This document shows positions 13,046-63,701 of a stretch of DNA of 64,000 bases, piece after piece. A model generated the notes under the pieces. The model saw nothing but the letters and a program-made list of their open reading frames with translations, was not told where the DNA came from and made no database searches. A program made the translations under genes and the position numbers. This DNA comes from an uncultured Verrucomicrobiae bacterium (GTDB lineage Bacteria > Verrucomicrobiota > Verrucomicrobiia > Chthoniobacterales > Chthoniobacteraceae), in the NCBI GenBank assembly GCA_963769025.1, contig CAVYKI010000012.1:352001-416000 (forward strand). The letters are read 5' to 3'. Every line of letters begins with the position of its first letter. Positions within the stretch are counted from its first letter, which is position 1.

Positions 13046-13054
13046 TTCACGCAT

Positions 13055-13555: not shown

Positions 13556-13606
13556 CCTCGGGCTTGCCGCAACCTCTTCACTGTCACCTTCCACTCTTAA
13601 CTTCCC

Positions 13607-25200: not shown

Positions 25201-25307
25201 GCCCCGTCACCGTGGACCAATACGGCGCCGGCCACTACGTGGACGGCCCCCCGCCCCACGCCTCCGCCAGCGGCTTCTATAGGCTCGTCTATCCTTACGT
25301 GCCGTAA
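16208..25307 (+). CDS. ~3,030-aa secreted adhesin-like protein (DUF11-like parts, Ig/Big domains, beta-helix, metzincin motif, 7 Ig-like repeats, FYR C-terminal domain); one frameshift near 20655
   Basis: Signal peptide [31 protein letters not shown]. ORFs 15929-20692 and 20637-25307 join inside repeat 2, where tatgttcgtcggcaat has one extra base versus tacgtccccggcaat in repeat 7. [11 protein letters not shown] motif. Confidence 0.88.
20233..22846 (+). repeat. Seven tandem ~372-381-bp intragenic Ig-like repeats
   Basis: Unit [25 protein letters not shown]..[28 protein letters not shown]..GSLGANKxIVID, starting near 20236, 20607, 20978, 21359, 21732, 22104 and 22476. Confidence 0.93.
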
Positions 25308-30231: not shown

Positions 30232-30923
30232 GGCTGCGGCGCCCGCAGGGATTCGGAACCGTCAAACTCGCCGGACGTGACAGGCACCTCGCAGATGCGT
30301 CCGCCGTCGAGACGGAAGACGACATCCGCCAGCGCCGCGGCCTCCGCGCGGCTGTGCGTGATGTGCAGCGCGGTGATGCCGTGCTCGCGCTGCACGCGCT
30401 TGAGCAGTGCGGCGAGGTCGTCGCGGAGTTCCTCGTCGAGCGCGGAGAGCGGTTCGTCGAGGAGGAGGACTTGCGGCTTCGCAGCGAGCGCGCGTCCGAG
30501 GGCGACGCGCTGGCGTTCGCCACCGGAGAGGCGCTGCGGGCGGCGGTCGAGGAGATGCGGTGACGCCGAGCTCGTCCGCGAGTTGGTCGACGCGCGTCGC
30601 GATTTCAGTCGGCGGGACGGCGGCGCAGGCGCAGCGCGAAGCCGAGCTGCTCGCGCACGGTCAAGGTGGGAAACAGCGCGCCATCCTGCGGCACGTAGCC
30701 GACACCGCGCGCGGCGGGGAGTTCGTGCGTCACATCGCGGTCGCCGATGATCACGCGTCCCGAGCGCGGCGTGCGCAGGCCGCAGATGATTTCGAGCAGC
30801 GTGGTCTTGCCGCAGCCCGTGCGGCCCATGAGCACGGCATAGCTCCCCGCGGGCACGGTGAAGCAGACATTTTCCAGGCGGAATGTCGCCGGCACGCCAG
30901 GCGATGGAGTCGAGCTGAATCAT
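30228..30923 (-). CDS. modC: ABC transporter ATPase, ModC/CysA-like (frameshifted)
   Basis: Walker A GRTGCGKT, YVPQD Q-loop, LSGGERQRVALGRAL signature, LLLDEP and HITH, spread over several frames. Confidence 0.8.
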   Translation of the reverse strand: MIQLDSIAWRAGDIPPGKCLLHRARGELCRAHGPHGLRQDHAARNHLRPAHAALGTRDHRRPRCDARTPRRARCRLRAAGWRAVSHLDRARAARLRAAPAPPSRRLKSRRASTNSRTSSASPHLLDRRPQRLSGGERQRVALGRALAAKPQVLLLDEPLSALDEELRDDLAALLKRVQREHGITALHITHSRAEAAALADVVFRLDGGRICEVPVTSGEFDGSESLRAPQP

Positions 30924-31020
30924 GCGAACGCGGAATGCCGAACGCGGAACGCGGAAAGAAACGGCGCGGCTTCGGCGCACTTGCACCGTTCCGCGTTCCG
31001 CGTTCCGCATTCCGCGTTCC
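30924..31020. repeat. Heptamer (GCGGAAY / RTTCCGC) palindromic element at the modB-modC junction
   Basis: Left arm gcgaacgcggaatgccgaacgcggaacgcggaa; right arm gttccgcgttccgcgttccgcattccgcgttcc; flanked by ATGA on both sides on the minus strand. Confidence 0.8.
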
Positions 31021-31815
31021 TCATAACTTTTCCCCCACGAGCCGCACTGCCACGAGCACGACGAGCGCGAGCAGCGACCATGAGCAGGCTGACGGCGACG
31101 GCGGCTTCGAGCCGGCCGACGCTGAGCTCGAGAAAGACACTGGTCGGCAGCACCTCGGTCTTCATCCGCGTGGCGCCGGCGAAGACGAGAATCGGCCCGA
31201 ACTCCCCGAGGCTGCGCGCCCACGCGATGCTGAACGCGGCGAACATCCCGCGCCGCGCCGCGGGCAGCGTGACCATCCACACGGCCTGCCCGCGCGAGCA
31301 GCCGAGCGTCATCGCCACATCCTCCGGTCGCGCGGAGAGATGATCGAAGACGCCGCGCATCGTCCGCACGGCGAAGGCGGCGCCGATGACGAACTGCGCG
31401 AGCACCACGCCGGCGACGGTGTAGGTGAACGGGATCGACGCGCTCGATCAACTTGCCCGCGCGGCGTCTGGAAAAAGATGAGCAGGCAAAGGCCGACGAC
31501 CATCGGCGGCAGGACGATCGGAATGTCGAGCGCGGCATCGAGCAACGCCTTGCCGGCGAAGCGCCCGCGCGAAAGCAGGTAGCCGACCGGCACCGCGAGC
31601 GAGCAGCGCGAGCAGCGCGAGAGCGGTGCAGGTGACGAGGCTGAGGACGATCGAATAGCGGATCTCCGCGCGTGCCGAGCGACTTCCCAGATCTGCCGCG
31701 GCGAGGTGTAGGTCGCCGTCGCGCCGAGCAGCGCGACGAGGAAGGCGAGATACAGGCCGGCGACGAGCGCGAGCCCGATCCAGAATGGAGTGAGCCACGC
31801 GCGCGGTGCGCTCAT
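31021..31815 (-). CDS. modB: ABC transporter permease, ModB-like (frameshifted)
   Basis: LDIPIVLPPMVVG, EDVAMTLG (EAA loop), WARSLGEFG; ends LVGEKL*. Confidence 0.85.
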
Positions 31816-49169: not shown

Positions 49170-52100
49170 TCAGTTCTTCGAAAGCGTGGGTGCCGCTGCG
49201 CTGGCCGCTTTCTTGGCCGCGTCGTATTGCGCGCGGAGCCGCTCCGCCTCGGCTTTCGCCGCCTGCAGTTCCTTCGCACTGCCGATCGCAGCCTTCTCCG
49301 CCGCGGCCTTCGTCTTCGCGGCATCCTTCTCCAGTTGCGCGATGCGGCCCTTGAGTTCGACGGCCTGCTTCTTCGCGTCCTCGACTTCCTTTTTCGCGGC
49401 GGCGACAGCCTTTTCGGCGGCCGGGAGTTTTCGGGAGGCAAGCTTGGCGTCCACGTCGGCCTTCTTGACCGCTTCGGTCAGTTCCTCCGGCACGGTGTTT
49501 TCAGCAGGCTTCGCAATTTGCTTCGCCTTCGCGGCGCTGAGCGCGTTCTGCGCCTTTTCGATCTCGGCTTTGATGGCCTGGTAGGGCGCATCCGCCTTCG
49601 CAAACTCCGGAGTCCCTTTCACGACCTTATCGCGCTCAAGTTTCAACTTCACCCGCTGCGCCTCGACCGCCTCTACTTTCTTCGCCGCCGCCGCGACTTC
49701 CGCAGCGACCGCATTCATCGCCTCGGCAGTCTTCGCGTCAGGCGGACCCGCCTTGCGATCCGCGACCGCCTTCTCCGCTGCGGCCAGCGCCGCCGCGGCG
49801 GCATCGGCCTCCTGCTTCAGCTTTTGAAATTGCGCCTCTTTTTCCGCAATCACCTTCGGGCCGTCGGCAACGGTCTTCTGCGCGTTCACGATTCCCTGCT
49901 TCGCAAGCTCGACCTGCCGGAATGCGTCCTTCGCCGTGGCGAGAAGGTCGTCGTGCTGCGCCTGCTTGGAAGCGACCGTCTGGCGCGCATTGAATACCGT
50001 CTGGTAAAACTGCGCACGTTTCCACCGGGCGACGCCGCCCTGTGAAGCCGTGAGCCTTCCGTTCGCCGCCTCGAGCGCGGTCTTCGCTGCTGCGACGGCC
50101 TTCTCGGCCTCGGTCGGTTGCGGAGCGGTCAACGCCGCCTTTGCCGCGTTCAGATCCGTCTCGATTTTCGTCGCTTCATCCTTCTTCGCCTGCACAGCCG
50201 TGCTCGCCCTTGCGAATTCCGGCGTGCCGTCCTTGAGCTTCGCGCGCGCCGCGCGGAGCGGCTCGACCTGTGCGTTCGCTGCATCGAACGCCTTCTGCAA
50301 CGTCGCGACCTTCGCCACCGCCTCGGGCGACGGCGTATACTTTCCGGGCTGAAGTTTCGCGATGTCGGCGTCGATCGCCTCCACGGCCTTCTGCGCATCC
50401 GCGATCGCCTTCGGTGCGGCGTTCCTCGAGGTGCTCACGGCGGCGATCGCCTTCTGATGCTGCTGGCGCAAGTCCTCGATCGCCTTCTGCGCGGTGGCGA
50501 CCGCGGCCTTTGCCGCCTCCACCTTTTCGCGGGCCGGCGGGACCGGGGCGGCTTCCACGGCGCGCTTTGCGTCGGCGAGTGCCTTCTCGGCATTTGCGAC
50601 CTGCGGTTCGAATTCCTTCACTGCCTGCTCGGCCTTCGCAAATTCCGGCGTGCCGGCTGCGGCTTTCGTGCGCGCCTCGGTGCGCTTTGCGAGTTCGGCC
50701 TTTGCACGGTCATGCGCCTCTTGCGAAGTCTTCGCCGCGGCCTCTGCATTGGCGCGCTGCCGGGATGCCGCTGCGGTCTCGAGATCCGTCGCCGTCTTGC
50801 GCGTGGCCGCGAGCGCATCCTGCGCCTTCGCAATCTGCGCCTTCAGCGCCTCGGCGGCCTTCTCGGCATTTGCCGGCGCCGCCTTGGCGGCTTCGACGGC
50901 CTGCGCTGCCGCGATCTTGCGCTGCTCCGCGGCGGCAAGGTCCGCCTTTCGCTTCGCCTCGGCAGCCTCGCGTTCGGCCTTCACCCGCGCCTCAGCGTCG
51001 GCCACGGCCTTTTGCAGGCCGGGCAGCGCTGCCTGCGTCTCGGCGAGCGTCTTCTCCGCCTCCGCGAGCTGCTCGGCGATGCCCTGGGGATTCGCACTCA
51101 GGCTGCCGATCTTCTTCCCGTCGATCGCATACACGCGAACGTCGCCCGTCCAATCCGCCGCGATGACGCGGTCGCTGTTCAAGGCGCAGCGCAACGCGAG
51201 ATCCCCGAGCGCCTCGGTGGCGATGATCTGTTTTCCAGCCGCGTCCCAGACCTTCGCGATCTTGTCGCGTCCGCAGCTCACGATGCGGCCGTCGGGCGTG
51301 AAATCCACCCACAGCACGCCGCCGGCGTGCGCGGCCCAGTTCCGGATTTCCGTGCCTTCCTTCACATTCCAAAGCGCGATCTTTCCATCCTCACTCGCAC
51401 TCGCGAGCACGCCGGGCATGAATGCCAGGGCGGTGCAGGCGACCTTGTGGCCGGCCAGCGTGTTGAACGGCTTCGGGTCCGCGCCTGCCTCCCACACTTC
51501 CACGCCGCCATTTCGATCCGCCGTCGCGAGGAATTTCCCATCCGGGCTGTATGCGACAGCCGTGACCCACTCGGTGTGCTTTTTGATCAGCCCCGTCTGC
51601 CGGCCGTCCTTCGTGTTGTAAATTTTCACCTGCTTGTTCGGCCCGCCGAGCGCCACGAACTGCTGGTCCGGGCTGATGTCCGCCGCGAGCACCGCGTCCG
51701 CCTCGTTGCCGACCACGCCGATGCGCTCGCCGGTCGTGACGTCCCACATCACCACCTGGCCGGTCTTCCCGCCGAGCCCGCCGCCGGCGATCAGGAGCTT
51801 CGCGTTGCGCGAAAAGCGCAGCACATTCGGAAAGCCCTCGGGGTAAGAGAGGATGCCGAGCCGCTCGAGCGTCTCCGTGTTGTAAAGGAGCACCTGCTTT
51901 TGTCCGCCGATGGCGACCAGCGGCGCCCAGGGGCTCGCGGCCATCGCGATGATGGCGTTGCTCGTGCGCGAACGCACAAACGGCTCCTGCGGCAAATCGC
52001 CCGGCATCGGTGCGGGACCCTCGGGCTTCGTGAGCGAGACGACGGCGGCCTCCACCTTGTTCGCCGTCACCTGCGCGGGCTTGCTGTTCGCATTCTCCAG

Positions 52101-52460
52101 CGCGAAACCGGCGATCCAGCCCTTCAGCAGCGCCATGTCGGCCTCGGAAAGCGAGTCGCCTTTGGGCGGCATCTTCGGGTCGCCGTCCGGCTTGCAGACC
52201 TTGTAGATCAGACTGCCGTCGGCATTGCCCGGCTTGACGACCGGACCATTTTCGCTGCCCGCCATCGTCGCCTGGTACGTCGTCACGTCGAGACCCGCCT
52301 TCTTCTTGTCGGGGTTATGGCAGGTCGTGCACGCGTTGCGGAAAATCGGGAGGATGTGATCCGTGTAGTTCACCTTCGCCGGAGCCTGCGCGAATGCGGC
52401 AAAGCTCAGGCCGAGGAATGCGGCGACGGTCGTGGCGGATTGGGAGAGATTCGGGGTCAT
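49170..52460 (-). CDS. Planctomycete-type cytochrome c + WD40 repeats + long coiled-coil protein
   Basis: Signal peptide, ILPIFRNACTTCH...MPP, WD40 blades, then an Ala/Lys/Glu-rich coiled coil of ~600 aa. Confidence 0.88.
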   Translation of the reverse strand: MTPNLSQSATTVAAFLGLSFAAFAQAPAKVNYTDHILPIFRNACTTCHNPDKKKAGLDVTTYQATMAGSENGPVVKPGNADGSLIYKVCKPDGDPKMPPKGDSLSEADMALLKGWIAGFALENANSKPAQVTANKVEAAVVSLTKPEGPAPMPGDLPQEPFVRSRTSNAIIAMAASPWAPLVAIGGQKQVLLYNTETLERLGILSYPEGFPNVLRFSRNAKLLIAGGGLGGKTGQVVMWDVTTGERIGVVGNEADAVLAADISPDQQFVALGGPNKQVKIYNTKDGRQTGLIKKHTEWVTAVAYSPDGKFLATADRNGGVEVWEAGADPKPFNTLAGHKVACTALAFMPGVLASASEDGKIALWNVKEGTEIRNWAAHAGGVLWVDFTPDGRIVSCGRDKIAKVWDAAGKQIIATEALGDLALRCALNSDRVIAADWTGDVRVYAIDGKKIGSLSANPQGIAEQLAEAEKTLAETQAALPGLQKAVADAEARVKAEREAAEAKRKADLAAAEQRKIAAAQAVEAAKAAPANAEKAAEALKAQIAKAQDALAATRKTATDLETAAASRQRANAEAAAKTSQEAHDRAKAELAKRTEARTKAAAGTPEFAKAEQAVKEFEPQVANAEKALADAKRAVEAAPVPPAREKVEAAKAAVATAQKAIEDLRQQHQKAIAAVSTSRNAAPKAIADAQKAVEAIDADIAKLQPGKYTPSPEAVAKVATLQKAFDAANAQVEPLRAARAKLKDGTPEFARASTAVQAKKDEATKIETDLNAAKAALTAPQPTEAEKAVAAAKTALEAANGRLTASQGGVARWKRAQFYQTVFNARQTVASKQAQHDDLLATAKDAFRQVELAKQGIVNAQKTVADGPKVIAEKEAQFQKLKQEADAAAAALAAAEKAVADRKAGPPDAKTAEAMNAVAAEVAAAAKKVEAVEAQRVKLKLERDKVVKGTPEFAKADAPYQAIKAEIEKAQNALSAAKAKQIAKPAENTVPEELTEAVKKADVDAKLASRKLPAAEKAVAAAKKEVEDAKKQAVELKGRIAQLEKDAAKTKAAAEKAAIGSAKELQAAKAEAERLRAQYDAAKKAASAAAPTLSKN

Positions 52461-52663: not shown

Positions 52664-53578
52664 TTAGAGTGGCGGCGGGCTGCTGCCGCTCGATCCCCAG
52701 ATGAGTTTCCTTCCGGCCCTCACCACTTCAATTCCAAACTCGAATTGCGATTCGATGGCCAATTCCTTTGCGGCACGGAAAACCTCGTAGCTGTCGGGAT
52801 ACACGTAGAAGGCCAAATACATGTTTTCCGCCTTCATCGCGCGCAAAAGGTCGCGCCAACCGCCCCCATTGGCAGGCAGTTGGAGGCCTCGCTCCGGCAA
52901 CGGCGTGCTTTCCTCCGCATCGGCGCCTGCGCTCCGCCACTGGATGTTCACGCGATCGAGACTACGGGAGGAGGTATAAATTGGGTAGATGCGACCATTT
53001 TGGCAGATGACAGGCAGTGATGAGCGGGTCCGTGCGCGCTCCTTGGGAAAACGGAGCTTCACGGTCTGCGCCTCGCGTTGCTGTTTCACTTGTGCGTTCA
53101 ATGCGGCCTCGCGTCCACGCAGTCGCGCGGTTTCGGCCTCGGTGGCGGCGATGAGGTTGTGCAGTTCCGCTTCGCACCGCGCGAGCGAACGAAGTTCCTC
53201 CGCGAGCGCAGCCCACGCGGCACCACCCCCTGCCGCGATGGCATCCGCGCGCTGCGCCGCATCAGTGGTCGCGGCCACGGCATCGGCCCGTGCAGCGGCG
53301 AGGGCTTCCGCTGCGAGGGCGACCTCGTCAAGCGGCGCAGCGTTGTCCGAAGCCGGCCAGGCCCCGGCTTGTTTGCGGAGGGCCTCGAGTTCGGCTTCGG
53401 CGAGTGCGATGCGCTGGGAATAGAGCGCATGGGAGGCGGGTGCCTCCGGCGACGCGCCGCCGGTGCGGGACAACAGCGCGACAAGCAGGGCGATCAGGAT
53501 GATTCCGCCGAAAGTGTTGCACATCGTGTCGAGCAGGAGCTCGAGACTATCCGCGGGGACGAGTGCGCGCCTTTTCAT
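52664..53578 (-). CDS. ExbD/MotB-like bitopic protein A (N-terminal TM with Asp, coiled coil, C-terminal alpha/beta domain)
   Basis: DSLELLLDTMCNTFGGIILIALLVALL; C-terminal YLAFYVYPDSYEVF..A..FEFG; ATGA overlap with the upstream gene. Confidence 0.7.
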   Translation of the reverse strand: MKRRALVPADSLELLLDTMCNTFGGIILIALLVALLSRTGGASPEAPASHALYSQRIALAEAELEALRKQAGAWPASDNAAPLDEVALAAEALAAARADAVAATTDAAQRADAIAAGGGAAWAALAEELRSLARCEAELHNLIAATEAETARLRGREAALNAQVKQQREAQTVKLRFPKERARTRSSLPVICQNGRIYPIYTSSRSLDRVNIQWRSAGADAEESTPLPERGLQLPANGGGWRDLLRAMKAENMYLAFYVYPDSYEVFRAAKELAIESQFEFGIEVVRAGRKLIWGSSGSSPPPL

Positions 53579-54420
53579 TTTGTGTGAAGTTCGATTTCCG
53601 TCTCCTCGGGGACCAAATCGTAGCCCACCCCGAAGCCTGCACTACGCGCCGCATCCACGTAAGCCTCGAACTCATCCGTCGCGGATGGCTTGCCATAAAA
53701 TACGACGTACTGCTTCTGCGCGCTCAGCCCGCCGAGGGCGGTGCGAAACTCGGCAAGGGTGCTTCCACCTGATTTGTCCTGCGTGTCGAACCGCTGGAGT
53801 GTCCAGCGCCGCGCAGCCAATTGCGCGATGACCGGTTCGCGGTTGGTGGCTGATGGCTCCGGGATGAGACGCAGCACATTCTGCCGCTGCTGTTCTGTGA
53901 GGACGGCGGCCTGCGCCTGTTCCGCTGCGCGTGCGGCGGCTTGCGCTGCCGCGGCGCGCTCTGCGGCAGCGGCTTCCAATTTTTTGATTTCAGCACGGCA
54001 CGGCTCCATGCCTGCGCTGAGCCGGGCAAAAACCTCCGCACGCTGTCCCGCACCAGCGTCGGGACGGATGTCGGCCGTCTCAGCACGGATGCGGGCATTA
54101 CGTCCAGCGAGCGCATTGGCATCGGCGCGCAACCCCGCCGCGCGCGAGGCGAGTTCGGCAGGGGTTGCCTGCCCGCCGCGCACAGCGGCGGCACGCTCAG
54201 CCATGCGACGGGCGGTGGAGAGTTCATCGAGCAAGGCCGCCAGGCGGGCTTCTTGGGCGACGGTTGCGCGCTCTTGCTCAAGCATCGGATTCGCGGAGCC
54301 AAGATTGAGGGACAGCAATAGCGTGACGATGATCAGGATGCCGCTCACAGCCGTAATGATGTCCTGAAAAGCAAAGAAGCTGATCGGCGATCCCGTCTGA
54401 CGCAGTTTCCGGCGGAGCAT
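53575..54420 (-). CDS. ExbD/MotB-like bitopic protein B
   Basis: RRK..ISFFAFQDIITAVSGILIIVTLLL; coiled coil; C-terminal YVVFYGKPS..F..A..GFGVGYD. Confidence 0.7.
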   Translation of the reverse strand: MLRRKLRQTGSPISFFAFQDIITAVSGILIIVTLLLSLNLGSANPMLEQERATVAQEARLAALLDELSTARRMAERAAAVRGGQATPAELASRAAGLRADANALAGRNARIRAETADIRPDAGAGQRAEVFARLSAGMEPCRAEIKKLEAAAAERAAAAQAAARAAEQAQAAVLTEQQRQNVLRLIPEPSATNREPVIAQLAARRWTLQRFDTQDKSGGSTLAEFRTALGGLSAQKQYVVFYGKPSATDEFEAYVDAARSAGFGVGYDLVPEETEIELHTK

Positions 54421-54423
54421 GAC

Positions 54424-55311
54424 TCAGGAGGGATCGCGCAGCCTCAACTTTGAGGCAACGTGCGCGTGGCAGTAGTCGTTGCACCCATCCAGAAACTCGC
54501 TTTCGCGCGCTTGCAGCATCGTCGAACGCAGTTGGATAATCAGTGCGGCGACAAGCGCGATGAGGGTTGTCTCAAACGCCGTGGCCAGACCGGCGGTCAC
54601 GTTGCCGAGCGATTCCTTCACCAGTGAAAAGTCGTTCCCGGCCTGAAGTGTGCCGCTGAACGCCGCGATCGCCTGGCTCAAGCCGAGGACCGTTCCAATG
54701 AAACCGAGCACCGGAATCGCCCAAGTCAGCCCCTGAACGAGTGTGTAGCTCGACGCGACCTGCTCCTCATCGTGCTCGGATTGCGTTTTCAATATCTGCG
54801 CAACGTCGCCGACCTGGCCGATGTTGTGGAGGTTCGAGAGCGCGCGTTCGATCCGGTTCAGCAGGATAAAATGGGACGTGCTGTCCACGAGCGTGTGGAT
54901 GCGGTCGAGCACGATGCGCGCAGTGGTGGGAGTGAGGACAAATTCGGGCTGCTGGGGCAGCGCAGCGACATCGAGCGCCGACATTTGGAGACCCAGCTTG
55001 CGCTTTTTCAAAAACAGGATCGAAAGCGCCCAAAAGAAAAAGAGCATGGTCGGATAAGGGCAGATCCCCCGCTCCAGAAACATGGCGGTAAGCCAGCGCG
55101 CCTGCGGCCATTGCCGGGCGACGAGCACGATCATGCCGTAAAATGCGACCGTCAGCAGCGCGCCGATGAGGAACGCGAGCGTCTTGTTGGCCGTGGTGAA
55201 GCGACCTCCGCGAAAGCCGAGGCGCTGCTCGAAATCGCGGCGCGTCCAGTGCAGTTGAAATCGCTCGGGAGCGAGAGGATTTGCTTCAGCGGTTGAAGGG
55301 TCGGTAGTCAT
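54424..55311 (-). CDS. MotA/TolQ/ExbB proton channel family protein
   Basis: WAIPVLGFIGTVLGL and GLATAFETTLIAL family TM motifs; two further N-terminal TM segments. Confidence 0.9.
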   Translation of the reverse strand: MTTDPSTAEANPLAPERFQLHWTRRDFEQRLGFRGGRFTTANKTLAFLIGALLTVAFYGMIVLVARQWPQARWLTAMFLERGICPYPTMLFFFWALSILFLKKRKLGLQMSALDVAALPQQPEFVLTPTTARIVLDRIHTLVDSTSHFILLNRIERALSNLHNIGQVGDVAQILKTQSEHDEEQVASSYTLVQGLTWAIPVLGFIGTVLGLSQAIAAFSGTLQAGNDFSLVKESLGNVTAGLATAFETTLIALVAALIIQLRSTMLQARESEFLDGCNDYCHAHVASKLRLRDPS

Positions 55312-55957
55312 CGAGGGTGGCGTAGATTATGCAAAAGGTCGTCACCGCGAGGATCGCGTACGCGATGAGAATCCCGGCAAGCGCAAGGCCTCGCCCCCCG
55401 ATGGCGTCATCCCTTTTCATCGCACTCAGCGCGATGTGGCCATAGAGCAGGGCGAGAGCCGTGGAGAGGCTGATCCCCCAGCCGCACAGGCTCAGCCAGC
55501 GCGGCATCCGCTCCGAGATGAGCACGACGGAGGCGCAAAAAAGGACGGCGCTCAAAATGCCGAACACCAGCGCGGCGACGGCAAGTCCGCTCATCTGCGG
55601 AAGCTCCCCGTGATGAAAAGGCGGCGGGACGGCGCTGGGTGCAACGCCATAAGCCGGTGGCGCAGGCATCGGTTCAGCCCGGCGCTCCGCGAGCTGAAGC
55701 CTGTCCTCCAGCGCGGCATTGCGGTTCCGCTGGGCGCTGAGTTCTCGCTCCAGCTGCGCCTGTTCGTTTGCGCGAGCGCCGCGCTGGTTCGATTCGAGTT
55801 GATCGATCCATTCTCCGACCGGACGCCAGCCGTCCCCGGCCTGGACGCGGTGGAGACGGCTGATCTCGCCCGCGGCGAGACGCGCCCGGATATCCGTCAG
55901 GGTAAAGCTCCCCAGCACACGCCCTTTCCATTCGATTTCAAACGTCTGAAGGTTCAT
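55286..55957 (-). CDS. GYF-like domain + coiled coil + Pro-rich linker + DUF4190-like membrane domain
   Basis: Start at 55957 (ATGA overlap). WKGRVLGSFTLTDIRARLAAGEISRLH..GW; SGLAVAALVFGI...GHIAL...GRGLALAG. Confidence 0.78.
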   Translation of the reverse strand: MNLQTFEIEWKGRVLGSFTLTDIRARLAAGEISRLHRVQAGDGWRPVGEWIDQLESNQRGARANEQAQLERELSAQRNRNAALEDRLQLAERRAEPMPAPPAYGVAPSAVPPPFHHGELPQMSGLAVAALVFGILSAVLFCASVVLISERMPRWLSLCGWGISLSTALALLYGHIALSAMKRDDAIGGRGLALAGILIAYAILAVTTFCIIYATLDDYRPFNR

Positions 55958-58932
55958 CGCTTTGGTGCCACGAGCGGGATTTTTTCCATCATTTCCGCGG
56001 GCAATTCTCCGAGGTAAAACCCGCGCGCAATGGCGAGAAGGTCGGCGGTTTTCACAGGGACGAAAACCACGGGTGCGAGCGGATGCGCCGGTTTCGCATC
56101 GAGGGCGACGAGCTGCGCATTTGCGTCGAGCGTCCACAGCGCAAACCCCGCGCGCGCCTCGCCGCGCAGGACGGGCTTTCCGGTCGCATCGATGTAGCCG
56201 CCGAGCGTAAGCCCGGCCTTCATCACCCCGGAGATGATGGAATGCGCGGCGCGCGCCTCGGCGTAATATTTTCGGGTCGCGCAGCGCTCCATGAGAGGTT
56301 TGAGCGCCGCATCGCGGGCGGACAGAATCCAGTCCGAACTGCGAGGCGCGGAGTCTGCGACGAGGGAGCGGAGTTCCGCGATATCGGTGCGGAGACTGCG
56401 ACAATAGTGAAGCCCCCACGCGTTGGGACGAAAATCGGCGACATACGCGAGCTTCGCCAGGAGGTAGGCGCGGAAGGACGGCGGCGTCTTCGTGAGCGAT
56501 GCGACGCGCTCGAATTGCCGGAGCAGCGGCAATTCGTACTTCGCGCCGTCGGCATCCGTCATCCGATCGAGATCCAGTGATCGAAACGCCGCCGTCGCGG
56601 GGCTTTCGCGGATATCCGTCAGTTCGTCGCCCGCACGGCCTGCCGGCAAAATGCGGAGCGTGAAAGTCGTGTTGTGGAAATTCACCCCCGGCAGCTTGTC
56701 CTTCGGATCGAAAAACTTTCCGCTCCACGAACGGTTCTGAACGCCGGCATCGCCCGTCCCGGAAGGCTCGCCGATTTTCCCCTGGGTGAAAACTTTCCGC
56801 CGCCCGCCGGCGGCGCTCACGACCGTCGCTTCGTGGACCGAATTCAGCAACGGATCGTCCCGGAGCGCAAAAAAACCGTTCAGCTCCGCCTCCAGAACAT
56901 TCTTCGGCTTCCACGGGTCCGCCCCATCCTTTTTCACCGCCTGCCAGGCCACCGCGTCATCCGGGATCAAGAGCGCGGCCAGCAGCGCATCCGTCGTTGG
57001 GAATTCCGCCGCGAGCTTGCCCGCAGCCTGGACCTCGGGTGAGGCGGAAAGCTGCGAGGCCTTGAAGGCATCGAGCGCCGCACGATACGCCGCAAGATCC
57101 GCGGCCTTCAGCAGCCCTTCGCGATACTGCGCCAGGGTGTCGAGTTCGCCGCGGATGAGATTTGCCCGCTGGCGGACTGCGGTGAAGCGCGCCGCGAGCG
57201 CAGCAGGAAGAGCCAGGGCTTTGAGCGGAGGATTCACCCGGGCCTCGAAGGCGCGCAGTGCCGGTTCCATCTCTGCCATCGTTGCCGTCAGCGCGTCCGC
57301 CGGGGCATCCAGCCGCAGCTTTTCCTGCACCTCGGATTCAAAATGCGCCAGCTCGGCATCCGCCGTGCGCGCCAGGCTCTCGCGCTCCACTGCCACCCAC
57401 GCCTCGAACAACGTGCGCGCGGCATCCAGCCGTGTCTGCAACCCCAGGCGCAAACTCTTCGGAAGCGACCCGATCTGGCCTGCGGTGATGTCGAGTTGCG
57501 ACGACACAGCGGATGGATCCACGGATACAAATTTGGCCGCGCTCTGCTTTTCGATTCCGGCGAGCAGGCCGTCCGCATCGGCCGCCATGCGGCGAGAGTC
57601 GCGGGTCCAGGCTGTTGTTTTTTCGATCTGCGCGTGGAGCTGCGGCCGCGCCGCCAGCCCGGGCCGGTCTGCGCGCAGCGATGCGGCCAGCCGCTCCGCC
57701 GGCTCGATTTCACCAGCGGCCTGGAGATGCGCGAGCTGCTGTTGAAAATCGCCGGCGCTCTGCGCACGCCACCACCACCACCCGGCTCCGCTCACCACGA
57801 TCAGCCCCACGGCCGCAAGCAGGGTTATTTTCACAACGCGCGCACGCTGGAGGCGCTGCCGTTCCGCGCGCACCGCCGCAGCGGAGGTGCGCGCCGCGTT
57901 CAGGATTTCGTCCCTCACGGGACGCCCAAACGCTTCGACTTCCTTCCATGCCCGTTCGAGCCCCAGAAGCATCTCCGCGGAGTCTGCCGCGGTGAGCGGC
58001 TGCCGCGCGCGGAGCCGCGCCCCGGCTTCCGCAGAGAGACCACTCAGGCGGGATGCGGCACTTGCAAAACGCGCTTCCTCCTCGGCCGCAGCCCTCTCGC
58101 GGTCCACCCAGCTTTTCGTGCTCTGAAAAACATCGCCACTTTCGCCGCTGAGCACAAACCCATGCTCCTCCGCGAGTGCCGCCATCCGCCCGAGGATCGC
58201 AGCCGCCCCGCGCCAGTCCCCGGCTTCCCGCAAACCCGCCAATCCCCCCGCCGCCTCGCGAGCCTCCGCAGCGGCAGCCCGCGCAAGCGCCTCGCGGCGG
58301 AGACCGAGGGCACGGTCGTAATCCGCGGTCCCCTCCAGTTCGCGCGCCGCGGGGATGCGCTCCAATGCGTCGAGCGTGGCAAGCGTGCCCGCCTCATCCC
58401 CGGCTTGCAGGCAGCCTTGCAGCCGCGTCTTGAGCCCTTGGAACGCCTTGTTCTCCAGCCGCGCGAGTTCCAGCTTCGCATTCGCATCCGTGGGATTCAG
58501 CCGCGCGATGGTGCGGATGATGCCGAGCGCCCGTGTGTCGTCGCGCGCCGTGACCGCCGCGCGATAGTCGCGATACAGCAGATGATTCGCCGAAACGCCG
58601 CGCCGGTAAAGCGCATCGAGCGCATCCACGGCCCGCGAATCAAACGGCGGCGCAAACGGAAGCCCGAGCTGCGCGCACACATCCGCCCACTTCCGCGCAT
58701 CGGCAAAGCTGAGCGCCGCCAGCAGGTCGAGCAACGGCGGCTCCGCCTCGGCAAGTTGCAGCGTCTGGTACTCGCTCCCCTTCGCCAGCATCGCCGCGCA
58801 AGTATCCAGCCGCGCCACCGCATCCGCGCACGCCCCGCTATAATCCGCCGCCAGCGTCTCCACCGCGACCCCCGGCGGATTCCCCGCGAGGTAATCTCGG
58901 ATGTGACGGATGAGTTTGTGGACGTTGTTCAT
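55954..58932 (-). CDS. Large bitopic membrane protein (~990 aa), helical N-terminal cytoplasmic part
   Basis: Start MNNVHKL with ATGA overlap; single TM ITLLAAVGLIVVSGAGWWWW near residue 370; no catalytic motif recognised. Confidence 0.8.
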   Translation of the reverse strand: MNNVHKLIRHIRDYLAGNPPGVAVETLAADYSGACADAVARLDTCAAMLAKGSEYQTLQLAEAEPPLLDLLAALSFADARKWADVCAQLGLPFAPPFDSRAVDALDALYRRGVSANHLLYRDYRAAVTARDDTRALGIIRTIARLNPTDANAKLELARLENKAFQGLKTRLQGCLQAGDEAGTLATLDALERIPAARELEGTADYDRALGLRREALARAAAAEAREAAGGLAGLREAGDWRGAAAILGRMAALAEEHGFVLSGESGDVFQSTKSWVDRERAAAEEEARFASAASRLSGLSAEAGARLRARQPLTAADSAEMLLGLERAWKEVEAFGRPVRDEILNAARTSAAAVRAERQRLQRARVVKITLLAAVGLIVVSGAGWWWWRAQSAGDFQQQLAHLQAAGEIEPAERLAASLRADRPGLAARPQLHAQIEKTTAWTRDSRRMAADADGLLAGIEKQSAAKFVSVDPSAVSSQLDITAGQIGSLPKSLRLGLQTRLDAARTLFEAWVAVERESLARTADAELAHFESEVQEKLRLDAPADALTATMAEMEPALRAFEARVNPPLKALALPAALAARFTAVRQRANLIRGELDTLAQYREGLLKAADLAAYRAALDAFKASQLSASPEVQAAGKLAAEFPTTDALLAALLIPDDAVAWQAVKKDGADPWKPKNVLEAELNGFFALRDDPLLNSVHEATVVSAAGGRRKVFTQGKIGEPSGTGDAGVQNRSWSGKFFDPKDKLPGVNFHNTTFTLRILPAGRAGDELTDIRESPATAAFRSLDLDRMTDADGAKYELPLLRQFERVASLTKTPPSFRAYLLAKLAYVADFRPNAWGLHYCRSLRTDIAELRSLVADSAPRSSDWILSARDAALKPLMERCATRKYYAEARAAHSIISGVMKAGLTLGGYIDATGKPVLRGEARAGFALWTLDANAQLVALDAKPAHPLAPVVFVPVKTADLLAIARGFYLGELPAEMMEKIPLVAPKR

Positions 58933-61917
58933 TGAATCTTGAAAAGAACGAGTGTCAGCCAAGGTGCGTTGCCTGACGGCTGAATCAGGAGGCGATATTC
59001 ACCCGCCGGCAAAACATCCTTCATGTGCAGCGGATGATCCCTGAGTGCGGCTAAAATCTTTTGCGACTCAGCGGCCTTCTTGGCTGCTGTCTTGCCCAGC
59101 TCCGCCTCGTTCTGTAACGCAACGAGAAGATTCTGGAGTTCTTTCAGCCGGTCAATTTTTTGGTCACGGATTCTTTTTAGGCTCTTCTTCTCATCATCAT
59201 TTTTTCCCTCTCCCATGCGCGACTTCCAACGTGCTATTGCTTTATCCACCGCTTCGACGGCACCGGGAATAACACTTGGTAGTGGCTCGTTCGCTTTCAG
59301 ATTCAAGAGACTCGTCCCGACGTTGAACAGCGCCTCGTACTCGCCAGAACTTCCGTAGGATTGCAGATGGCGTCCAAAGGTGTCGGGTTTGATCGGATGC
59401 GAAAGCAGCGGGATCTCCGAAACTTGGGCGTCAGGTTGCTTTTTCTGTCTGGCTTCTTTCTCCGCCGCTTCGCGCCTCTGCTTATTTTCCTGTTCGATGA
59501 CTTTGTTGATCGGCTCCAAAGTCGCAACAAGGTGCTCGGACGGTTTTCCATCAACAATTGCCTGCTGGTCCTGATAGCTTTTCTTCTCGGTAACGATGCG
59601 GTTGTTCAGTGCGGTCACAATCCCTTCAAGCGAGGCCGAACCAGATGCTTCGACCGGGATGCGATGCTTTTCAGTTGGGATCTGCGGCGAGCAGGAACTC
59701 GGTAATTCCAAGACTAGCATTGGCGCTAGAGTTCTCGCCTTTTCGCACAGATCGAGCGCTTCGCTGCTCATGATGCGCAAGCGGTCGTTTTCGCGCTGCA
59801 AGCCGCCTTTTTCCACCACACGCAGCGGCGCAGGATTGTCAGCGAGAGTGACCCAAGCGGTAAGCAAGCACTTACCGCCCATCTGCAGTCGCAATTCGTA
59901 TGGTGGGGCCAGTGATGCCTGGCCTGCGGAGAACTCACCGCTTTTCTCATTCCAAACAAACGCCTTCTTTTGGTCGGTAACCTTGAACAAAAAACCGTCC
60001 CCTTGCCGTTTGAGTACCATTTCCATTGCCTTCGGCACCTGGTGTTTTCAGCCACGGCTCGGCTCCGGACTTTTTCAGTTCAGCGGCGAACACTTTCCAC
60101 TCTTCAGATTTCTCCGGGTTGAGGACGATCATCAAATCTCCCTCGAAGCGCTTCTTCTCTTCGGAGCTTTTCTTCTCTTTGGAGCTGTCCGGTTCCTGTT
60201 TTTTTGGGTCGTCCGCTGCAATTGCTCGCTTTGGTGGAGGCTTGCCAGCGTTTGCAAGCGTCACCAGCCAAGCCGGCCACAGGTGGCGGCGCTCTTTGAG
60301 CAGAGCTTCCATTTTTTCGTTATTTCCGTGCGCCGCAACAACAGCTTCCCAATCCTCAATTAGTTTTTCAACTTTCGGCCCGCCTTCCTCATTTCGGAGG
60401 TCGCTCGGCAATGCTTCGAAGTGCTTGCGGAACCAGCCGGGCGTGCGTTCACCCGGCGGGAGTTCAATCGCCGCGAACAGGCGGTCCGCCCACAGCTTTT
60501 CCACGGCATTACGCGTATCCTCAAAAAGATGCGGGGCTAGCCGCTTCAGGAGCTTGGAGTCCGCTTTTTCGATCTGGTCGCGTAGAGCGTGAAGCGCGTC
60601 GAGTTGCGCCGCCTTCACAGGGGACTGTTCTATTTTCAACAACTCCTGCTGGTGGGCGTGGAATTTCCCGTGAAGAGAAAACAACTCGCTCACAGTTTCA
60701 GGAACCGGAAGACCCGTGCCGCCGGCGTTGAACAGGGTAATCGGTTGCTCGGCCTGCGGCAGCGGTGGCGAAAGCTTAGACTTTTGCGTTTTCAACGCTG
60801 CGGCGGTGTCTTCGGTGGCTCTGGCAAGGGCGATGGACGCATCGAGTTTTGCGGCTGGCACCTCGGCGAGTTCCGCCCCGGTCTCATCGCTGAAAACACT
60901 GCGGAATGTGTCCCGGATTTGTTGGCGCTGGTTTTTGACTCCGTCACTCTCCCGCATGATGAAAAACATCCCGCCCGCCACCACTGCGACGATCGCGGCA
61001 GCAAGGCCGATCCAGATCGCGGTGCGGCTTCCGCGTTCACGGCGCGGGCGGGTGGCGAGGGCCAGTTTTTCGTCGAAGAGATTGCCGATTTTCGCGGGCG
61101 CGGCGCCCATCGGGGAGGACATCGGGAAACTCGCGTCATCGGGCACGCGCGAAGTGGAATGGGCACCGGCGGTCTCGAAGGTCTGCGCAGGCGGAATCGG
61201 GAGTGTATGCGGCGCAGTGAGGTCCAGGATGGCACGCCCATTCTCCGCATTTGCACGCAGGGGTGAATCGGCCGGGAGGGCGAGCCAGCGAAAGTCTGCC
61301 AGTTCATCTCCGGTCTGAAGGAAAGTGGTGAATGTCGCCTGCCACGATTGCGCCAAAGAGCGCCCCAGCGATTCGGCGAAGATCGCGAGCACATCGGCAC
61401 CACGCGGGAGGATGAGGCAGGCGGCGCGCGCGGGCTGGAGCAGTTCGGCGTGACGGGATTCGCCCGTGGCAGCCTGCCATGCGGAAGCACGCCCCGGCTG
61501 GCGACGGAAGCGCCCGAGCGCGACTTCGTCTCCGCCATCCAGCCACCGCGGAGCATCGCTCCACACGGGACGCCATTCCATTTGCGCAAGCACATCGGCT
61601 GGCGACGGCGCAGCGGAGCCGAGTGCGGCGATCTCACGCGGTTCGACGATGAGGTGGTGAGCGATGTGGTTCGTGCGGCCGGTGTAGTCGGCTCCGGCAT
61701 CGCGGATGCACGTGAGGACGTGATAGCGCGAGCCTCCGGCGGTGAGGATGCGATGCGCCAGAACCACGCCGCCAGCAACGCGGTCGAACTGGCTGTCGCG
61801 CTCGATGGCGGTGACGAGCAACGGATGAATGGCACGGTGCCGGGCGACCGTTCCGAAGCCGGAGCGGCCTGCTTCGAGCAGGCGCGGCGCGCTGGTGTAG
61901 ATGAGTTGCCAGGCCAT
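58929..61917 (-). CDS. GAP1-N2/GAP1-M-like GTPase-associated membrane protein (~995 aa; probable frameshift at 60045-60048)
   Basis: MAWQLIYTSAPRLLEAGRSGFGTVA..DYTGRTNHIAHH..SWQATFTT; TM IWIGLAAAIVAVVAGGMFFI. Removing one A from the A4 run joins ORF 59947-61917 to ORF 58929-60038 (WLKHQVPKAM). Confidence 0.72.
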
Positions 61918-61925
61918 TTTTTCGG

Positions 61926-63701
61926 TCAGGTCGTCGCGGGAACCATCGCGGGTGCGATGCGGGAGAGCACCCAGAGAGTCGGGATTTCCACCCATCGCGG
62001 AGCGAGCCGGGCGGGATCGGGACCGATATGCTGTTCGCCCTTGGCATCGAGGAAAGTCACGGGCGACGCGCCGAGCGGGCTGGCGGCAAAGAACATCACG
62101 TCGCTGGAAATCGCCTCGGCGTTGGCCACGATTTCGGGCGCCAATTCGAGGAGCAGCGTGCGGATGCGGGCGGAGTTCGCGCGGATGGCGACAATGTCGA
62201 GCCCGCCGGGGCGGACCGGCTCGGCCAACGGCTCGGCCCCGAGCAGGTGGAGCCACGTATCACACTTGCCGATGATGACCGCGAACGGGGTGGCGATGCG
62301 CTGGCCGCTCTGGATGCCGAGGATGCTCTTGAGCCGCGCCTCGGACTCGGCGAGGATGATTTCCTGCTGGTCGGCGCGGCGCTGGAGGAGCTGCGGATCG
62401 TCCGCTTCGCCGATGCGACGGCGAAAGGCGACATTTGTGAGCGGATCGAACAGGAAAAAGAGTCCCGCGGCGGTGGCGATGTGCTGCGCGCCAGGCGAGT
62501 CAGCGCTGTTGCGCGTCGGCTCGAAGTGCTCGCCCGCATTGTCGTAAAATACGAGTGAGAACCCCGGCTCCCCCGTGCGGCTGAGCTGGAAAACGAATGG
62601 CCGGGGGAGCGCCACCTTGCGGCCAAATCGCGGGAGGCGTTCGTACATCGCACCTTCGAGCTGCGTCTTGGCGAGCGCCGCGTCCTGCGGTGTGGCCGCG
62701 GAAAAGAGCTGCGTCTTCATCTCGTTGAGCATCACGTTTTCCGAAGGATCGGCGTCGCGGAAACTGAGGCCGAAGTTCTGGTAAAGCGAGGTGCCGAGCA
62801 TTTTCACGAGCACACTGAGGTAGTAGCTCTTTCCGGCCGACGGCGCGCCGATGATGGAAAAAATGTGATGCGGCAGGTCGAGGAAACCGGGGGGCAATTT
62901 GCGCCGGCAATGCGGACAGGCGAGGTCTCCCGCAGGGATGCCCATGGGATCGAGCGCCTGCCCGCGGTCGTTGAAGCGCGTCGCCTGGAACCTCTGCATC
63001 GCAGCATCCCCCAGCAGCGGATCGCCTCTCAGCGAGTCGTGGACTGCGATGTGCATGACATCGCCGCGATCAAACCTCAGCCAGCAAACCGGGCAGGTAA
63101 ATTCCCCGTACTCCGTGTTGATTTGAGCCGGAGACGCCATCGGTTCGGCGGGTGCCGGAGCGGATTGACCATTCCCCGCCCGAACCGGAGGCGGCAGTAT
63201 GTGCATGATGTCGCGTGCCCGAAACCCCATCGTCTCAAGCCCCGTGGGAAAGACGACTTTGCCCGACGTTCCACCGAGCTGATTCAGGAAATAGGCGAGT
63301 TCCGCAAACCGACACGGGCCATGTTTGGTCTGTGTGTCGGAATCGAAAATGTTCCAGCGCGTGAGATCCAAGCCTGCCAGCCAATCCTTCGGCTTCCTGG
63401 TGGCCCTCAACGCAAGCAGCGAATCGCCGGCGACAATCGTGAAGTCCAATTCTGACTCGATTGGCAGGAATCCCTCGGTGGTGTCCCCGTTCAAACGAAT
63501 CGCGCCGGAAGGGGAAACAGCCATGATCTGGCACCCCTTCTCCCCCCGATGCACCGCGCACCCTTCGCCCTGCGGGGCCGAGGCAAGCGGCCAATCCGCG
63601 CCCTCGCCCGCGGTGATTCGGAAGGGGAAATTCTCGATTTGCTGATGCCGCCCCGTGATGCAATCGAACACCACCACTACCTGTTTGCCGAAGAGATTCA
63701 T
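61926..63701 (-). CDS. TRAFAC GTPase of double-GTPase (DO-GTPase2) type with N-terminal FHA-like, GYF-like and Zn-ribbon parts
   Basis: G1 GAPSAGKS, G2-like KT, G3 FYDNAGE, FLFDP, G4 variant GKCD; CPVC...CPHC. Confidence 0.82.
   Translation of the reverse strand: MNLFGKQVVVVFDCITGRHQQIENFPFRITAGEGADWPLASAPQGEGCAVHRGEKGCQIMAVSPSGAIRLNGDTTEGFLPIESELDFTIVAGDSLLALRATRKPKDWLAGLDLTRWNIFDSDTQTKHGPCRFAELAYFLNQLGGTSGKVVFPTGLETMGFRARDIMHILPPPVRAGNGQSAPAPAEPMASPAQINTEYGEFTCPVCWLRFDRGDVMHIAVHDSLRGDPLLGDAAMQRFQATRFNDRGQALDPMGIPAGDLACPHCRRKLPPGFLDLPHHIFSIIGAPSAGKSYYLSVLVKMLGTSLYQNFGLSFRDADPSENVMLNEMKTQLFSAATPQDAALAKTQLEGAMYERLPRFGRKVALPRPFVFQLSRTGEPGFSLVFYDNAGEHFEPTRNSADSPGAQHIATAAGLFFLFDPLTNVAFRRRIGEADDPQLLQRRADQQEIILAESEARLKSILGIQSGQRIATPFAVIIGKCDTWLHLLGAEPLAEPVRPGGLDIVAIRANSARIRTLLLELAPEIVANAEAISSDVMFFAASPLGASPVTFLDAKGEQHIGPDPARLAPRWVEIPTLWVLSRIAPAMVPATT

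Follow-up and report, generated by a model that had tools for sequence, protein, structure and literature searches.

Ion-driven 5:2 motors power flagella, the Ton and Tol systems, gliding, type 9 secretion and Zorya defence, and with each new partner set, another route by which energy is carried across the cell envelope has come to light. Here we analyse a tight array of eight co-oriented open reading frames (ORFs; g1 to g8) on the minus strand of a 64,000-nt stretch of DNA from an uncultured Verrucomicrobiae bacterium (contig CAVYKI010000012.1; hereafter the window). The array spans positions 52664-63701 and is filed here as a cluster that joins two predicted kinds of system: a GTPase switch of the GAP1-N2 kind, and a motor with one TolQ-like and two TolR-like subunits (TolQ/2xTolR) of the type known from the Planctomycetes-Verrucomicrobia-Chlamydiae (PVC) group. 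It is made up of the following ORFs.

61926-63701 (-), g1: cytoplasmic GTPase of 591 aa, in which an FHA-like N-terminus and a zinc ribbon are joined to a P-loop domain of the DO-GTPase2 type
59947-61917 (-), g2: N-terminal 656 aa of the GAP1-N2 protein
58929-60026 (-), g3: ORF of ~365 aa in another frame, equivalent to the C-terminal third of the GAP1-N2 protein in relatives
55954-58932 (-), g4: 992-aa bitopic membrane protein
55286-55957 (-), g5: 223-aa adaptor-like protein with a GYF_2-like domain, a linker and a small transmembrane (TM) module
54424-55311 (-), g6: 295-aa channel subunit of the MotA/ExbB/TolQ family
53575-54420 (-), g7: 281-aa TolR/ExbD-like subunit a
52664-53578 (-), g8: 304-aa TolR/ExbD-like subunit b, a paralogue of g7

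A previous account of this DNA, made from the letters alone (the sequence-only reading), had listed seven co-oriented genes. The co-orientation stands, and so do the junctions, which were exact on recheck: ATGA stop/start overlaps at 58929-32 (g3/g4), 55954-57 (g4/g5) and 53575-78 (g7/g8), an overlap of 26 nt between g5 and g6 (55286-55311), and gaps of 8 nt or less (8 nt between g1 and g2, 3 nt between g6 and g7). The count had to be raised to eight ORFs, the split of the GAP1-N2 gene having been overlooked. Five of the seven canonical proteins are predicted to cross the inner membrane once or several times and to have sizeable periplasmic portions. A scan for promoters and terminators gave counts not above those of shuffled sequence.

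The closest functional analogue of the cluster appears to be the Agl-Glt system of Myxococcus xanthus, which was absent from the analogues named in the sequence-only reading; the resemblance concerns a possible mode of working and not membership. In the parts of the two papers used here (PMC11761067, PMC11135422), the AglR5-AglQ-AglS motor is described as a TolQ-like ring with a TolR-like heterodimer, the MglA GTPase gates assembly, zinc-ribbon (ZnR), GYF and FHA domains are carried on the cytoplasmic side by bitopic membrane proteins, and large helical scaffold proteins are also present. As far as these parts go, the cluster matches this plan in g6 with g7/g8, in the GTPase g1 with its FHA-like part and ZnR, in the GYF domain of g5 and in the helical g4. 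It departs from it in having a GTPase of the DO-GTPase2 type instead of the Ras-like MglA, no MglB-type partner, ZnR and GYF domains on separate proteins, and TolR-like proteins with stalks of ~140 residues. No Roadblock/LC7, TonB_C (GltJ/GltG-like), outer-membrane Glt family or adhesin was matched in the operon with Pfam and NCBIfam.

The DO-GTPase/GAP1 'conflict' systems were defined by Kaur, Burroughs, Iyer and Aravind in eLife in 2020 (PMC7159879). The portions of that paper considered here report GAP1-N2 types in verrucomicrobia and planctomycetes, planctomycete GAP1-N2 versions in which a GYF protein is fused to trypsin or to a TM-rich region, and a component with fibronectin type III (FNIII) repeats that is said to mark GAP1-N2 systems. 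Like the systems described there, the cluster has a zinc-ribbon GTPase with a Walker B Glu, followed by a GAP1-N2 protein with a C-terminal TM helix and an extracytoplasmic extension; unlike them, it has a single GTPase and no tubulin, HSP70 or kinase theme. The FN3 family was not found in the eight window ORFs or in the operon ORFs of relatives, where only a weak Ig match in the C-terminus of the L060 GAP1 protein was seen. The main text and two text supplements of PMC7159879, without the neighbourhood source file, which was not covered, contain no mention of MotA, ExbB, TolQ, TolR, MotB, proton or stator.

In the text of a 2025 survey in Molecular Biology and Evolution (PMC12204202), a TolQ-like gene with two different TolR-like genes is reported from Planctomycetes and Verrucomicrobia. 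According to the same text, these PVC sets are predicted 5:2 motors of unknown function, for which the authors raise a gliding-like role; the survey also describes non-canonical clusters with new transducers, which keep an SHLS-type His, and Asp-bearing 'transpore helix' proteins in heterologous pairs. The cluster resembles the TPR-tolQ-2xtolR-vWA cluster of that text in its one TolQ-like and two TolR-like genes, and differs from it in the lack of a vWA transducer and in the long coiled-coil stalks of its TolR-like proteins. Neither the operon of the window nor the ORFs scanned past g8 in L008, L037, L044 and L069 matched a VWA family. The text of PMC12204202 contains no mention of a GTPase. 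In the literature searched, no text describes a DO-GTPase/GAP1 pair linked to a MotA/ExbB-type motor, the bioRxiv supplements and the eLife source file not being covered; the combination is likewise not described in the portions consulted of a 2025 stator survey in mBio and of a 2026 preprint that cites DO-GTPases.

As in Zorya (ZorAB), a MotA/ExbB-family channel is found here outside flagella, and g6 matches ZorA weakly (22.7 bits, best E 1e-5 in PADLOC). Unlike in Zorya, the alignment of the 295-aa g6 to ZorA profiles, which have 420-780 positions, is confined to their channel part, no operon ORF gave a PADLOC match to any other Zorya component, and the cluster is not distributed in the manner of a mobile defence system. 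Membership in Zorya was rejected, since no long-tailed ZorA and no ZorB or ZorC/D/E-type partner was matched. With TolQR and ExbBD, the cluster shares the MotA_ExbB domain and partners with a single Asp-bearing TM helix, the C-terminal domain having TolR as its best, though modest, structural match, and it differs from them in its two paralogous long-stalk partners and in the four predicted TM segments of g6. TolQ and ExbB have three TM segments. The TolA, TonB, TolB, Pal and TonB-dependent receptor families were not found in the eight ORFs with Pfam and NCBIfam, and the statement in the sequence-only reading that no TonB, TolA, flagellar or receptor gene lies in the operon was borne out by the same two databases. 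Membership in Tol-Pal or Ton was also rejected, because the transducer and the TolB, Pal and receptor parts were unmatched and the TM helices of g2 and g4 carry no His.

The evidence that ties the switch to the motor comes from related loci. At least 2963 full-length relatives of g6 were found at E <= 1e-5 among 8000 candidates scored; the 120 homologues listed were 58-93% identical, and the named ones belonged to Prosthecobacter and Verrucomicrobiales. An alignment of 23 g6 homologues led to 528 related stretches in a collection with one genome per species, and all locus counts given in this work rest on the best 80 of these, with up to 10 kb of flank (69 labelled Verrucomicrobiota, 3 Planctomycetota and 8 with another or no phylum; L031 is from a cultured carrier, Brevifollis gellanilyticus). 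Gene presence was scored by tblastn with the window proteins (E 1e-5), and only loci with enough flank were counted. The GTPase gene g1 was found in 45 of the 46 loci with at least 9 kb upstream and g2 in 49 of the 50 with at least 7.5 kb upstream, L008 being the one that lacked each of them, while g4 was present in 54/54 loci with at least 4.5 kb upstream. Downstream, g7 was detected in 69 of 72 loci (missing in L047, L069 and L070, although L069 has a 273-aa ORF in the g7 position) and g8 in 57 of 59 (missing in L022 and L047). Wherever the genes were found in the 80 loci, their order was identical. Since the same order recurs in nearly every locus with enough flank, the array is more than a chance arrangement, and the linkage of the GTPase/GAP1 genes to the motor trio, on which the sequence-only reading depended, held elsewhere.

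The pairwise-identity matrices of g1, g2 (N-terminal 240 aa), g4, g6, g7 and g8 in 39 gene sets were correlated with r = 0.89-0.97, and a Mantel test of g1 against g6 gave r = 0.95 (p = 0.001). Judged by these matrices, the parts of the operon have diverged together. The most conserved proteins were g6 and then g1, with mean pairwise identities of 0.59 and 0.55. On this comparative evidence, the predicted functional coupling of the GTPase/GAP1-N2 switch to the MotA/ExbB-type motor holds up. A few loci showed insertions or replacements. In L008:1-9100, labelled Chthoniobacter, g4-g8 were kept, and a H+-pyrophosphatase and a family-4 glycosyltransferase upstream replace g1 and g2. A 792-aa family-less ORF lies between the GAP1-N2 gene and g4 in L019:3968-6346, a pair of small ORFs lies between g2 and g4 in L028:5157-6334, where one of them weakly matches a DUF6036 nucleotidyltransferase, and 1.7 kb separates g1 from g2 in L057:4098-5783.

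Searches of 72,556 plasmid and 50,697 phage records gave no relative of g1 at E <= 1e-3. In the tree of g6 (76 sequences), a Planctomycetota clade stood apart from well-supported Verrucomicrobiota sub-clades, and taxon labels were clustered, with 13 changes against a shuffled mean of 16.5 (0/200 shuffles were as low). Eight loci (L004, L040, L042, L059, L063, L070, L071 and L075) carry labels that name another phylum or none, namely Elusimicrobia, Heliomicrobium, Ca. Angelobacter, Beijerinckiaceae, Ca. Sulfotelmatobacter, Deltaproteobacteria, Dongiaceae and Nanopelagicales. Since their g6 nests inside Verrucomicrobiota or Planctomycetota clades, they are probably mis-binned and not transferred.

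The channel subunit g6 matched Pfam MotA_ExbB with E 3.3e-10 and 40.2 bits (cut-off 22.9), and the family was above cut-off in 9/9 of its relatives, which agrees with the earlier MotA/TolQ/ExbB label. A weak TolQ match (20.5 bits against a cut-off of 221) was the sole addition made by NCBIfam to the eight ORFs scanned. In PADLOC, only the weak ZorA matches of g6 and a weak PtuB match of g3 were obtained for the operon ORFs, and its models gave no match to g1, g4, g5, g7 or g8. Four TM segments are predicted in g6 (46-64, 83-101, ~191-216 and ~241-268), and its relatives conserve a cytoplasmic N-terminal motif and a C-terminal tail.

The two partners of g6, g7 and g8, were paralogous over their full length (hhalign probability 99.5%, E 1.5e-22, 276 columns). 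Each has a short positive N-terminus and one N-terminal TM helix, with an N-in topology by flank charge, and bears an Asp in this helix, Asp20 of g7 being kept in 67 of 70 homologues and Asp17 of g8 in 64 of 65. The TM helix is followed by a helical stalk of 127-149 residues in g7 and 128-147 in g8 homologues (~143 and ~136-141 in the window), and within a locus the g7 stalk differed from the g8 stalk by -7 to +9 residues (63 loci). Both proteins end in an alpha/beta domain. That of g7 (aa 181-281) was modelled with AlphaFold2 (AF2) at a pLDDT of 91.3, and its top Foldseek match in the PDB was E. coli TolR (5by4; E 8.5e-4, TMq 0.53), the only one at or below 0.001; ExbD (8pek) ranked 9th with E 8.4e-3. 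Neither window protein matched Pfam, NCBIfam or PADLOC, and the family profile of g7/g8 matched only coiled coils in the PDB. The earlier description of two ExbD-like proteins is thus backed by the TM Asp, the gene position and a modest structural match to TolR/ExbD, and gains nothing from sequence models.

The sequence-only reading had also proposed modelling complexes with AlphaFold-type methods. This was done for the g7-g8 heterodimer only, and pairing was predicted with an ipSAE of 0.71 (runs 0.71, 0.75 and 0.63) against 0.00 for the best of three controls; contacts agreed by at least 89% between runs and partner pLDDT was at least 80. The pass mark of this test was reached by 116/157 solved complexes and 2/215 mismatched pairs, figures that are a rough guide for alignments of one's own. 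The predicted contacts recurred with the period of a helix over the full length of the stalks (g7 49-196 with g8 46-178), and the end domains were predicted to touch as well. The pairing of g7 and g8 is therefore supported as a prediction. Some homologues are enlarged: a g7-type protein with a C-terminal Trypsin_2 domain is encoded in L074:10849-12639 (596 aa) and L078:10914-12527 (537 aa), the g7 homologue of L076 has 589 aa, and in L012:2116-3162 a separate trypsin-like gene lies between the GTPase and GAP1-N2 genes.

On the switch side, g2 carries a GAP1-N2 domain (PF20013) at aa 1-123 (Pfam, E 1e-16, 61.7 bits against a cut-off of 24), which was also above cut-off in 10/10 relatives scanned. 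A single TM helix is predicted at aa 303-321, with a positive flank on its N-terminal, cytoplasmic side and a long extracytoplasmic region beyond, so that the earlier 'GAP1-N2-like TM protein' proved well founded. GAP1-M and GAP1-C were not found in the window g2 at E <= 0.1 with Pfam; among the relatives, GAP1-M was found in 1/10 (L080 only) and GAP1-C in 0/10. The profile and PADLOC searches suggested in the sequence-only reading thus place GAP1-N2 and MotA_ExbB above cut-off and DO-GTPase2 below it, and leave GAP1-M unmatched in the window.

The ORF that follows, g3, had eight matches in 1.84 billion representative proteins, one of them being the window's own 317-aa product. Four of the matches were proteins of ~1000-1034 aa aligned only in their C-terminal third: P0122 (1034 aa; aa 770-1032, 67% identity), P0123 (1013 aa; aa 650-1009), P0125 and P0127 (~1000 aa each). 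The first ~650 aa of P0122 and P0123, both of which carry the GAP1-N2 domain, aligned to g2 with 49% and 42% identity, respectively. In 47 of 51 loci, an uninterrupted GAP1-N2 ORF reached the next gene, either with a 4-nt overlap or at a distance of 50 nt or less, the exceptions being L009 (fragmented), L019 and L028 (extra ORFs) and L080. Since full-length relatives cover both pieces, g2 and g3 are, by these alignments, two pieces of one GAP1-N2 gene with a frame change near 60015-60030, which is either a real frameshift or an assembly error. If the split is real, the periplasmic end of the protein would be lost in the source organism. No Pfam family, TM helix or signal-like segment was found in g3, it had no usable match in the ESM Atlas, and by tblastn (E 1e-5) it was found in 0/80 loci. 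Across the loci, GAP1-N2 proteins range from 504 to 1147 aa, and similarity to the window g2 usually ends at ~aa 240-330, beyond which lies a hypervariable periplasmic part. The corresponding region of the window, the C-terminal half of g2 together with g3 (58929-60927), has a low GC content of 0.53-0.56 (0.562 in the g2 half, 0.529 in g3), compared with 0.654 for the whole window, and a GC content at third codon positions (GC3) of 0.59-0.60 (0.60 in the g2 half), compared with 0.69-0.78 in the other operon genes. This variable region may be a recombined or recently replaced cassette.

The GTPase g1 is soluble, with no predicted TM segment, and its top Pfam match was DO-GTPase2 (PF19993; E 8.5e-5, 22.8 bits), under the cut-off of 27. 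The same family was the top match in 9/9 relatives scanned and was above cut-off in two of them. In 31 aligned sequences, the four ribbon Cys (C-P-x-C ... C-P-x-C), the Walker A G-K-S, the Walker B Y-D-N-A-G-E with its Glu and the G-K of G-K-x-D were invariant, and the D of the last motif was nearly so; zinc-ribbon cysteines on the N-terminal side of the domain are a feature of Kaur-type GTPases. The DO-GTPase label given earlier has the top match and the invariant motifs in its favour, and a score below cut-off in the window against it. FHA was above cut-off in the L078 homologue, and in the PDB the g1 profile found no GTPase structure, its only matches being weak ones to a zinc finger (E 0.16) and to an FHA domain of mycobacterial origin (E 0.32). 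Limisphaerales-type relatives lack the FHA-like part and have a second small zinc ribbon in its place.

Two further proteins complete the operon. In the AF2 model of g4 (pLDDT 89.1, pTM 0.50), residues 1-365 form an all-helical cytoplasmic domain and residues 366-384 the TM helix; the periplasmic portion has a long helical region and ends in a C-terminal domain of mixed alpha/beta structure (699-992). Searches of Pfam, NCBIfam and PADLOC gave no family for g4, and none was above cut-off in 11/11 relatives. Foldseek returned no PDB match for the model at E <= 0.001, only helical-repeat look-alikes with a TM-score below 0.15, the profile gave only coiled-coil-like matches in the PDB, and the ESM Atlas held only unnamed Verrucomicrobiota/Planctomycetota clusters with a score below 0.9. 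The adaptor-like g5 was below threshold for both DUF4190 (28.4 bits, cut-off 35) and GYF_2 (14.8 bits, cut-off 25.8) in Pfam. Its N-terminal ~55 residues could be aligned in 27/27 sequences, with W10, G12, G16, P17 and W44 conserved, a GYF_2-like N-terminus was seen in 5 of 11 ORFs in the g5 position (above cut-off in L078 and L080), and the linker has a conserved Pro-rich patch; the g5 profile matched no GYF structure in the PDB. The TM module is interchangeable among relatives, with DUF4190, CD225, RDD, TM2 and DUF805 found by Pfam in 11 loci. The earlier name, GYF/DUF4190 protein, thus draws its support from relatives, the window protein itself scoring too low. By tblastn, g5 was detected in 37 of 72 loci and missed in 35, a low count that is explained by a diverged sequence and not by absence of the gene; no ORF was present in the g5 position of L042 and L060, the two Limisphaerales-clade loci mapped.

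Around the operon, the window holds housekeeping genes (biotin ligase, ROK kinase, amidohydrolase, oxidoreductases) and genes for large surface proteins. PADLOC matched 1 of 30 neighbouring ORFs (mad3, E 2e-23), a 436-aa ABC-type ATPase-like protein ~21 kb away at 30228-31538 (-). Directly downstream of g8, after a gap of 158 nt with a promoter-like site at 52556-52529, a 1096-aa protein is encoded at 49170-52460 (-), with a planctomycete cytochrome c domain (PSCyt1), WD40 repeats and an SMC-like coiled coil. It is probably outside the system, since a similar gene was near the operon in 1 of 80 loci only (L064, on the opposite strand). The large surface proteins form a cluster at 2-11425 (-), 15929-25307 (+) and 25777-29475 (+): an ORF with seven PATR repeats that runs off the window and has at least 3808 aa, then two ORFs (1587 and 1556 aa), of which one contains a Big_9 domain, and at the end genes for a PATR protein and for an autotransporter of 800 aa that has a beta-domain. 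At 12533-14134 (+), three tandem genes (170, 166 and 175 aa) each encode a phage tail collar domain (E 1e-27 to 2e-29).

Our preferred explanation, to which we give slightly better than an even chance, is that the array encodes one conserved, vertically inherited, chromosomal machine, a GTPase-gated envelope motor of the 5:2 type, present in Verrucomicrobiota with relatives in Planctomycetota. In such a machine, g6 would form an ion-conducting ring of the MotA/ExbB/TolQ type, as family membership and models suggest, and g7 and g8 would insert into it together as a heterodimeric axle, each with a TM Asp of the proton-binding type. Their matched stalks of ~140 residues would pair as a coiled coil, which, if continuous, would measure ~20 nm by estimate and hold the TolR-like end domains deep in the periplasm; a trypsin-like protease may take their place in some lineages. 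The membrane assembly would be completed by g4 and the GAP1-N2 protein (g2+g3), bitopic scaffolds or transducers that extend widely on both sides of the inner membrane, the hypervariable periplasmic part of the latter being a sensor-like piece. Together with g5, the GYF adaptor, and the GAP1-N2 domain, the FHA-ZnR-GTPase g1 would set when and where the motor assembles or acts, a role suggested by the covered parts of Kaur et al. 2020 and by the Agl-Glt analogy. The output would be ion-driven mechanical work or signalling across the envelope, with surface movement or adhesion, outer-membrane or wall handling, and contact sensing as candidates. A bolder version, which we put forward only tentatively, sees in the array an undescribed class of GTPase-gated 5:2 rotary motor, an independent counterpart of the myxobacterial focal-adhesion motor, in which the TolR-like heterodimer is an axle with a coiled-coil shaft of fixed length (~140 residues) across the periplasm and the GAP1-N2 end is a contact sensor; inherited vertically in Verrucomicrobiota and part of Planctomycetota, it would drive an unrecognised process of surface movement, adhesion or outer-membrane handling.

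Several observations weigh against this explanation. The matrices of identity are expected to be correlated, because any vertically inherited neighbours give such correlations, and L008, with g4-g8 and no g1 or g2, indicates that the motor module can stand without an adjacent switch. On the side of the motor, g6 matched no PDB chain, either as a profile or as a single sequence even at E <= 10, and ExbD was found by Pfam in 0/44 C-terminal domains (E <= 10) and in 0/20 full-length relatives. The likeness of g7/g8 to TolR is modest, because the TM-score is ~0.5 and generic alpha/beta folds, those of a ribosomal protein and RNase-H-like ones, score close behind. Part of the pass of g7-g8 in the pairing test may reflect likeness, since TolR/ExbD dimers are solved. 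The covariation of stalk lengths was weak (Pearson 0.49, driven by four short-stalk loci; Spearman not significant) and was rejected as evidence of pairing. Finally, the hypervariable GAP1-N2 periplasmic part with its low GC3, the swapped TM modules of g5 and the sporadic trypsin domains (L074, L078, L012) would all fit a conflict system. An anti-phage or anti-invader system of this kind, in which the GAP1-N2 periplasmic region senses the invader, the GTPase sets the threshold and the motor trio is the effector, acting for instance by uncontrolled ion flow or envelope proteolysis (with the trypsin or the small TM module in some lineages), is a live rival, though one that seems to us doubtful. 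It would account for the membership of the g1-g2 pair in a family defined as conflict systems by Kaur et al. 2020 and for the planctomycete GYF-trypsin and TM-rich couplings in the covered parts of that paper; for a GAP1-N2 periplasmic part that cannot be aligned past ~aa 240-330, varies between 504 and 1147 aa in protein length, is represented by g3 in 0/80 loci and differs in GC3 from the other genes (0.59-0.60 vs 0.69-0.78); for the exchange of g5 TM modules among five families; for Trypsin_2 on two g7 homologues and a separate trypsin gene in L012; and for the weak similarity of g6 to ZorA. However, g6, which would be the effector, has the highest conservation of all the proteins (0.59) and is retained together with g4, g7 and g8 in almost every locus, its tree follows taxonomy, g1 has no relatives in the plasmid and phage records, there is no defence island (1/30 neighbours), PADLOC gives no match for g1, g4, g5, g7 and g8, and no FNIII-repeat component is present. 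On the reading we prefer, the cluster serves an inbuilt function of the cell and not mobile abortive infection. Of the trans-envelope machine proposed in the sequence-only reading, the coupling of GTPase/GAP1-N2 and motor gains support from linkage, co-divergence and membrane topology, while its 'defence' option is the least supported part, given a tree that follows taxonomy, the absence of plasmid or phage relatives, the setting among housekeeping and surface-protein genes with a single PADLOC match, and the weak ZorA similarity.

It is improbable that two independent systems, a GTPase/GAP1-N2 signalling pair and a TolQ/TolR-type module g4-g8, merely lie side by side uncoupled. L008, which keeps g4-g8 without g1 and g2, and the accessory genes between g1 and g2 (L012, L057) or g2 and g4 (L019, L028) would be explained in this way, but adjacency in the same order in 45/46 and 49/50 loci, across clades only 51-71% identical in g6, would not, nor would the stop/start overlap of g3 and g4 in the window and a g2 that reaches g4 in 47/51 loci, often with a 4-nt overlap. 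Just as improbable is a Tol-Pal/Ton-like system of this lineage serving outer-membrane stabilisation or uptake, in which g4 or the GAP1-N2 protein replaces TolA/TonB. The TolQ/TolR-like trio, the bitopic proteins with long periplasmic helical regions, and the non-canonical TolQ and two-TolR clusters of PVC bacteria with new transducers in the text of the 2025 survey (PMC12204202) are in line with it. The operon, on the other hand, lacks matches to the TolA, TonB, TolB, Pal and receptor families, no His is found in the TM segments of g2 and g4, in contrast to the SHLS-type His of the transducers in that text, the 365-aa cytoplasmic domain of g4 is unlike TolA/TonB, and a GTPase switch is not part of Tol/Ton as described there.

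The vertically inherited, GTPase-gated envelope motor that we favour would bring together a motor of the 5:2 family, locked in one operon, and a switch so far discussed only in predicted 'conflict' systems. Matching stretches span hundreds of species-level genomes in two environmentally dominant and poorly studied phyla. If the coupling is real, it would provide the first mechanistic output for the DO-GTPase/GAP1 family, and the Verrucomicrobiota would gain a candidate machine for envelope mechanics or surface behaviour.

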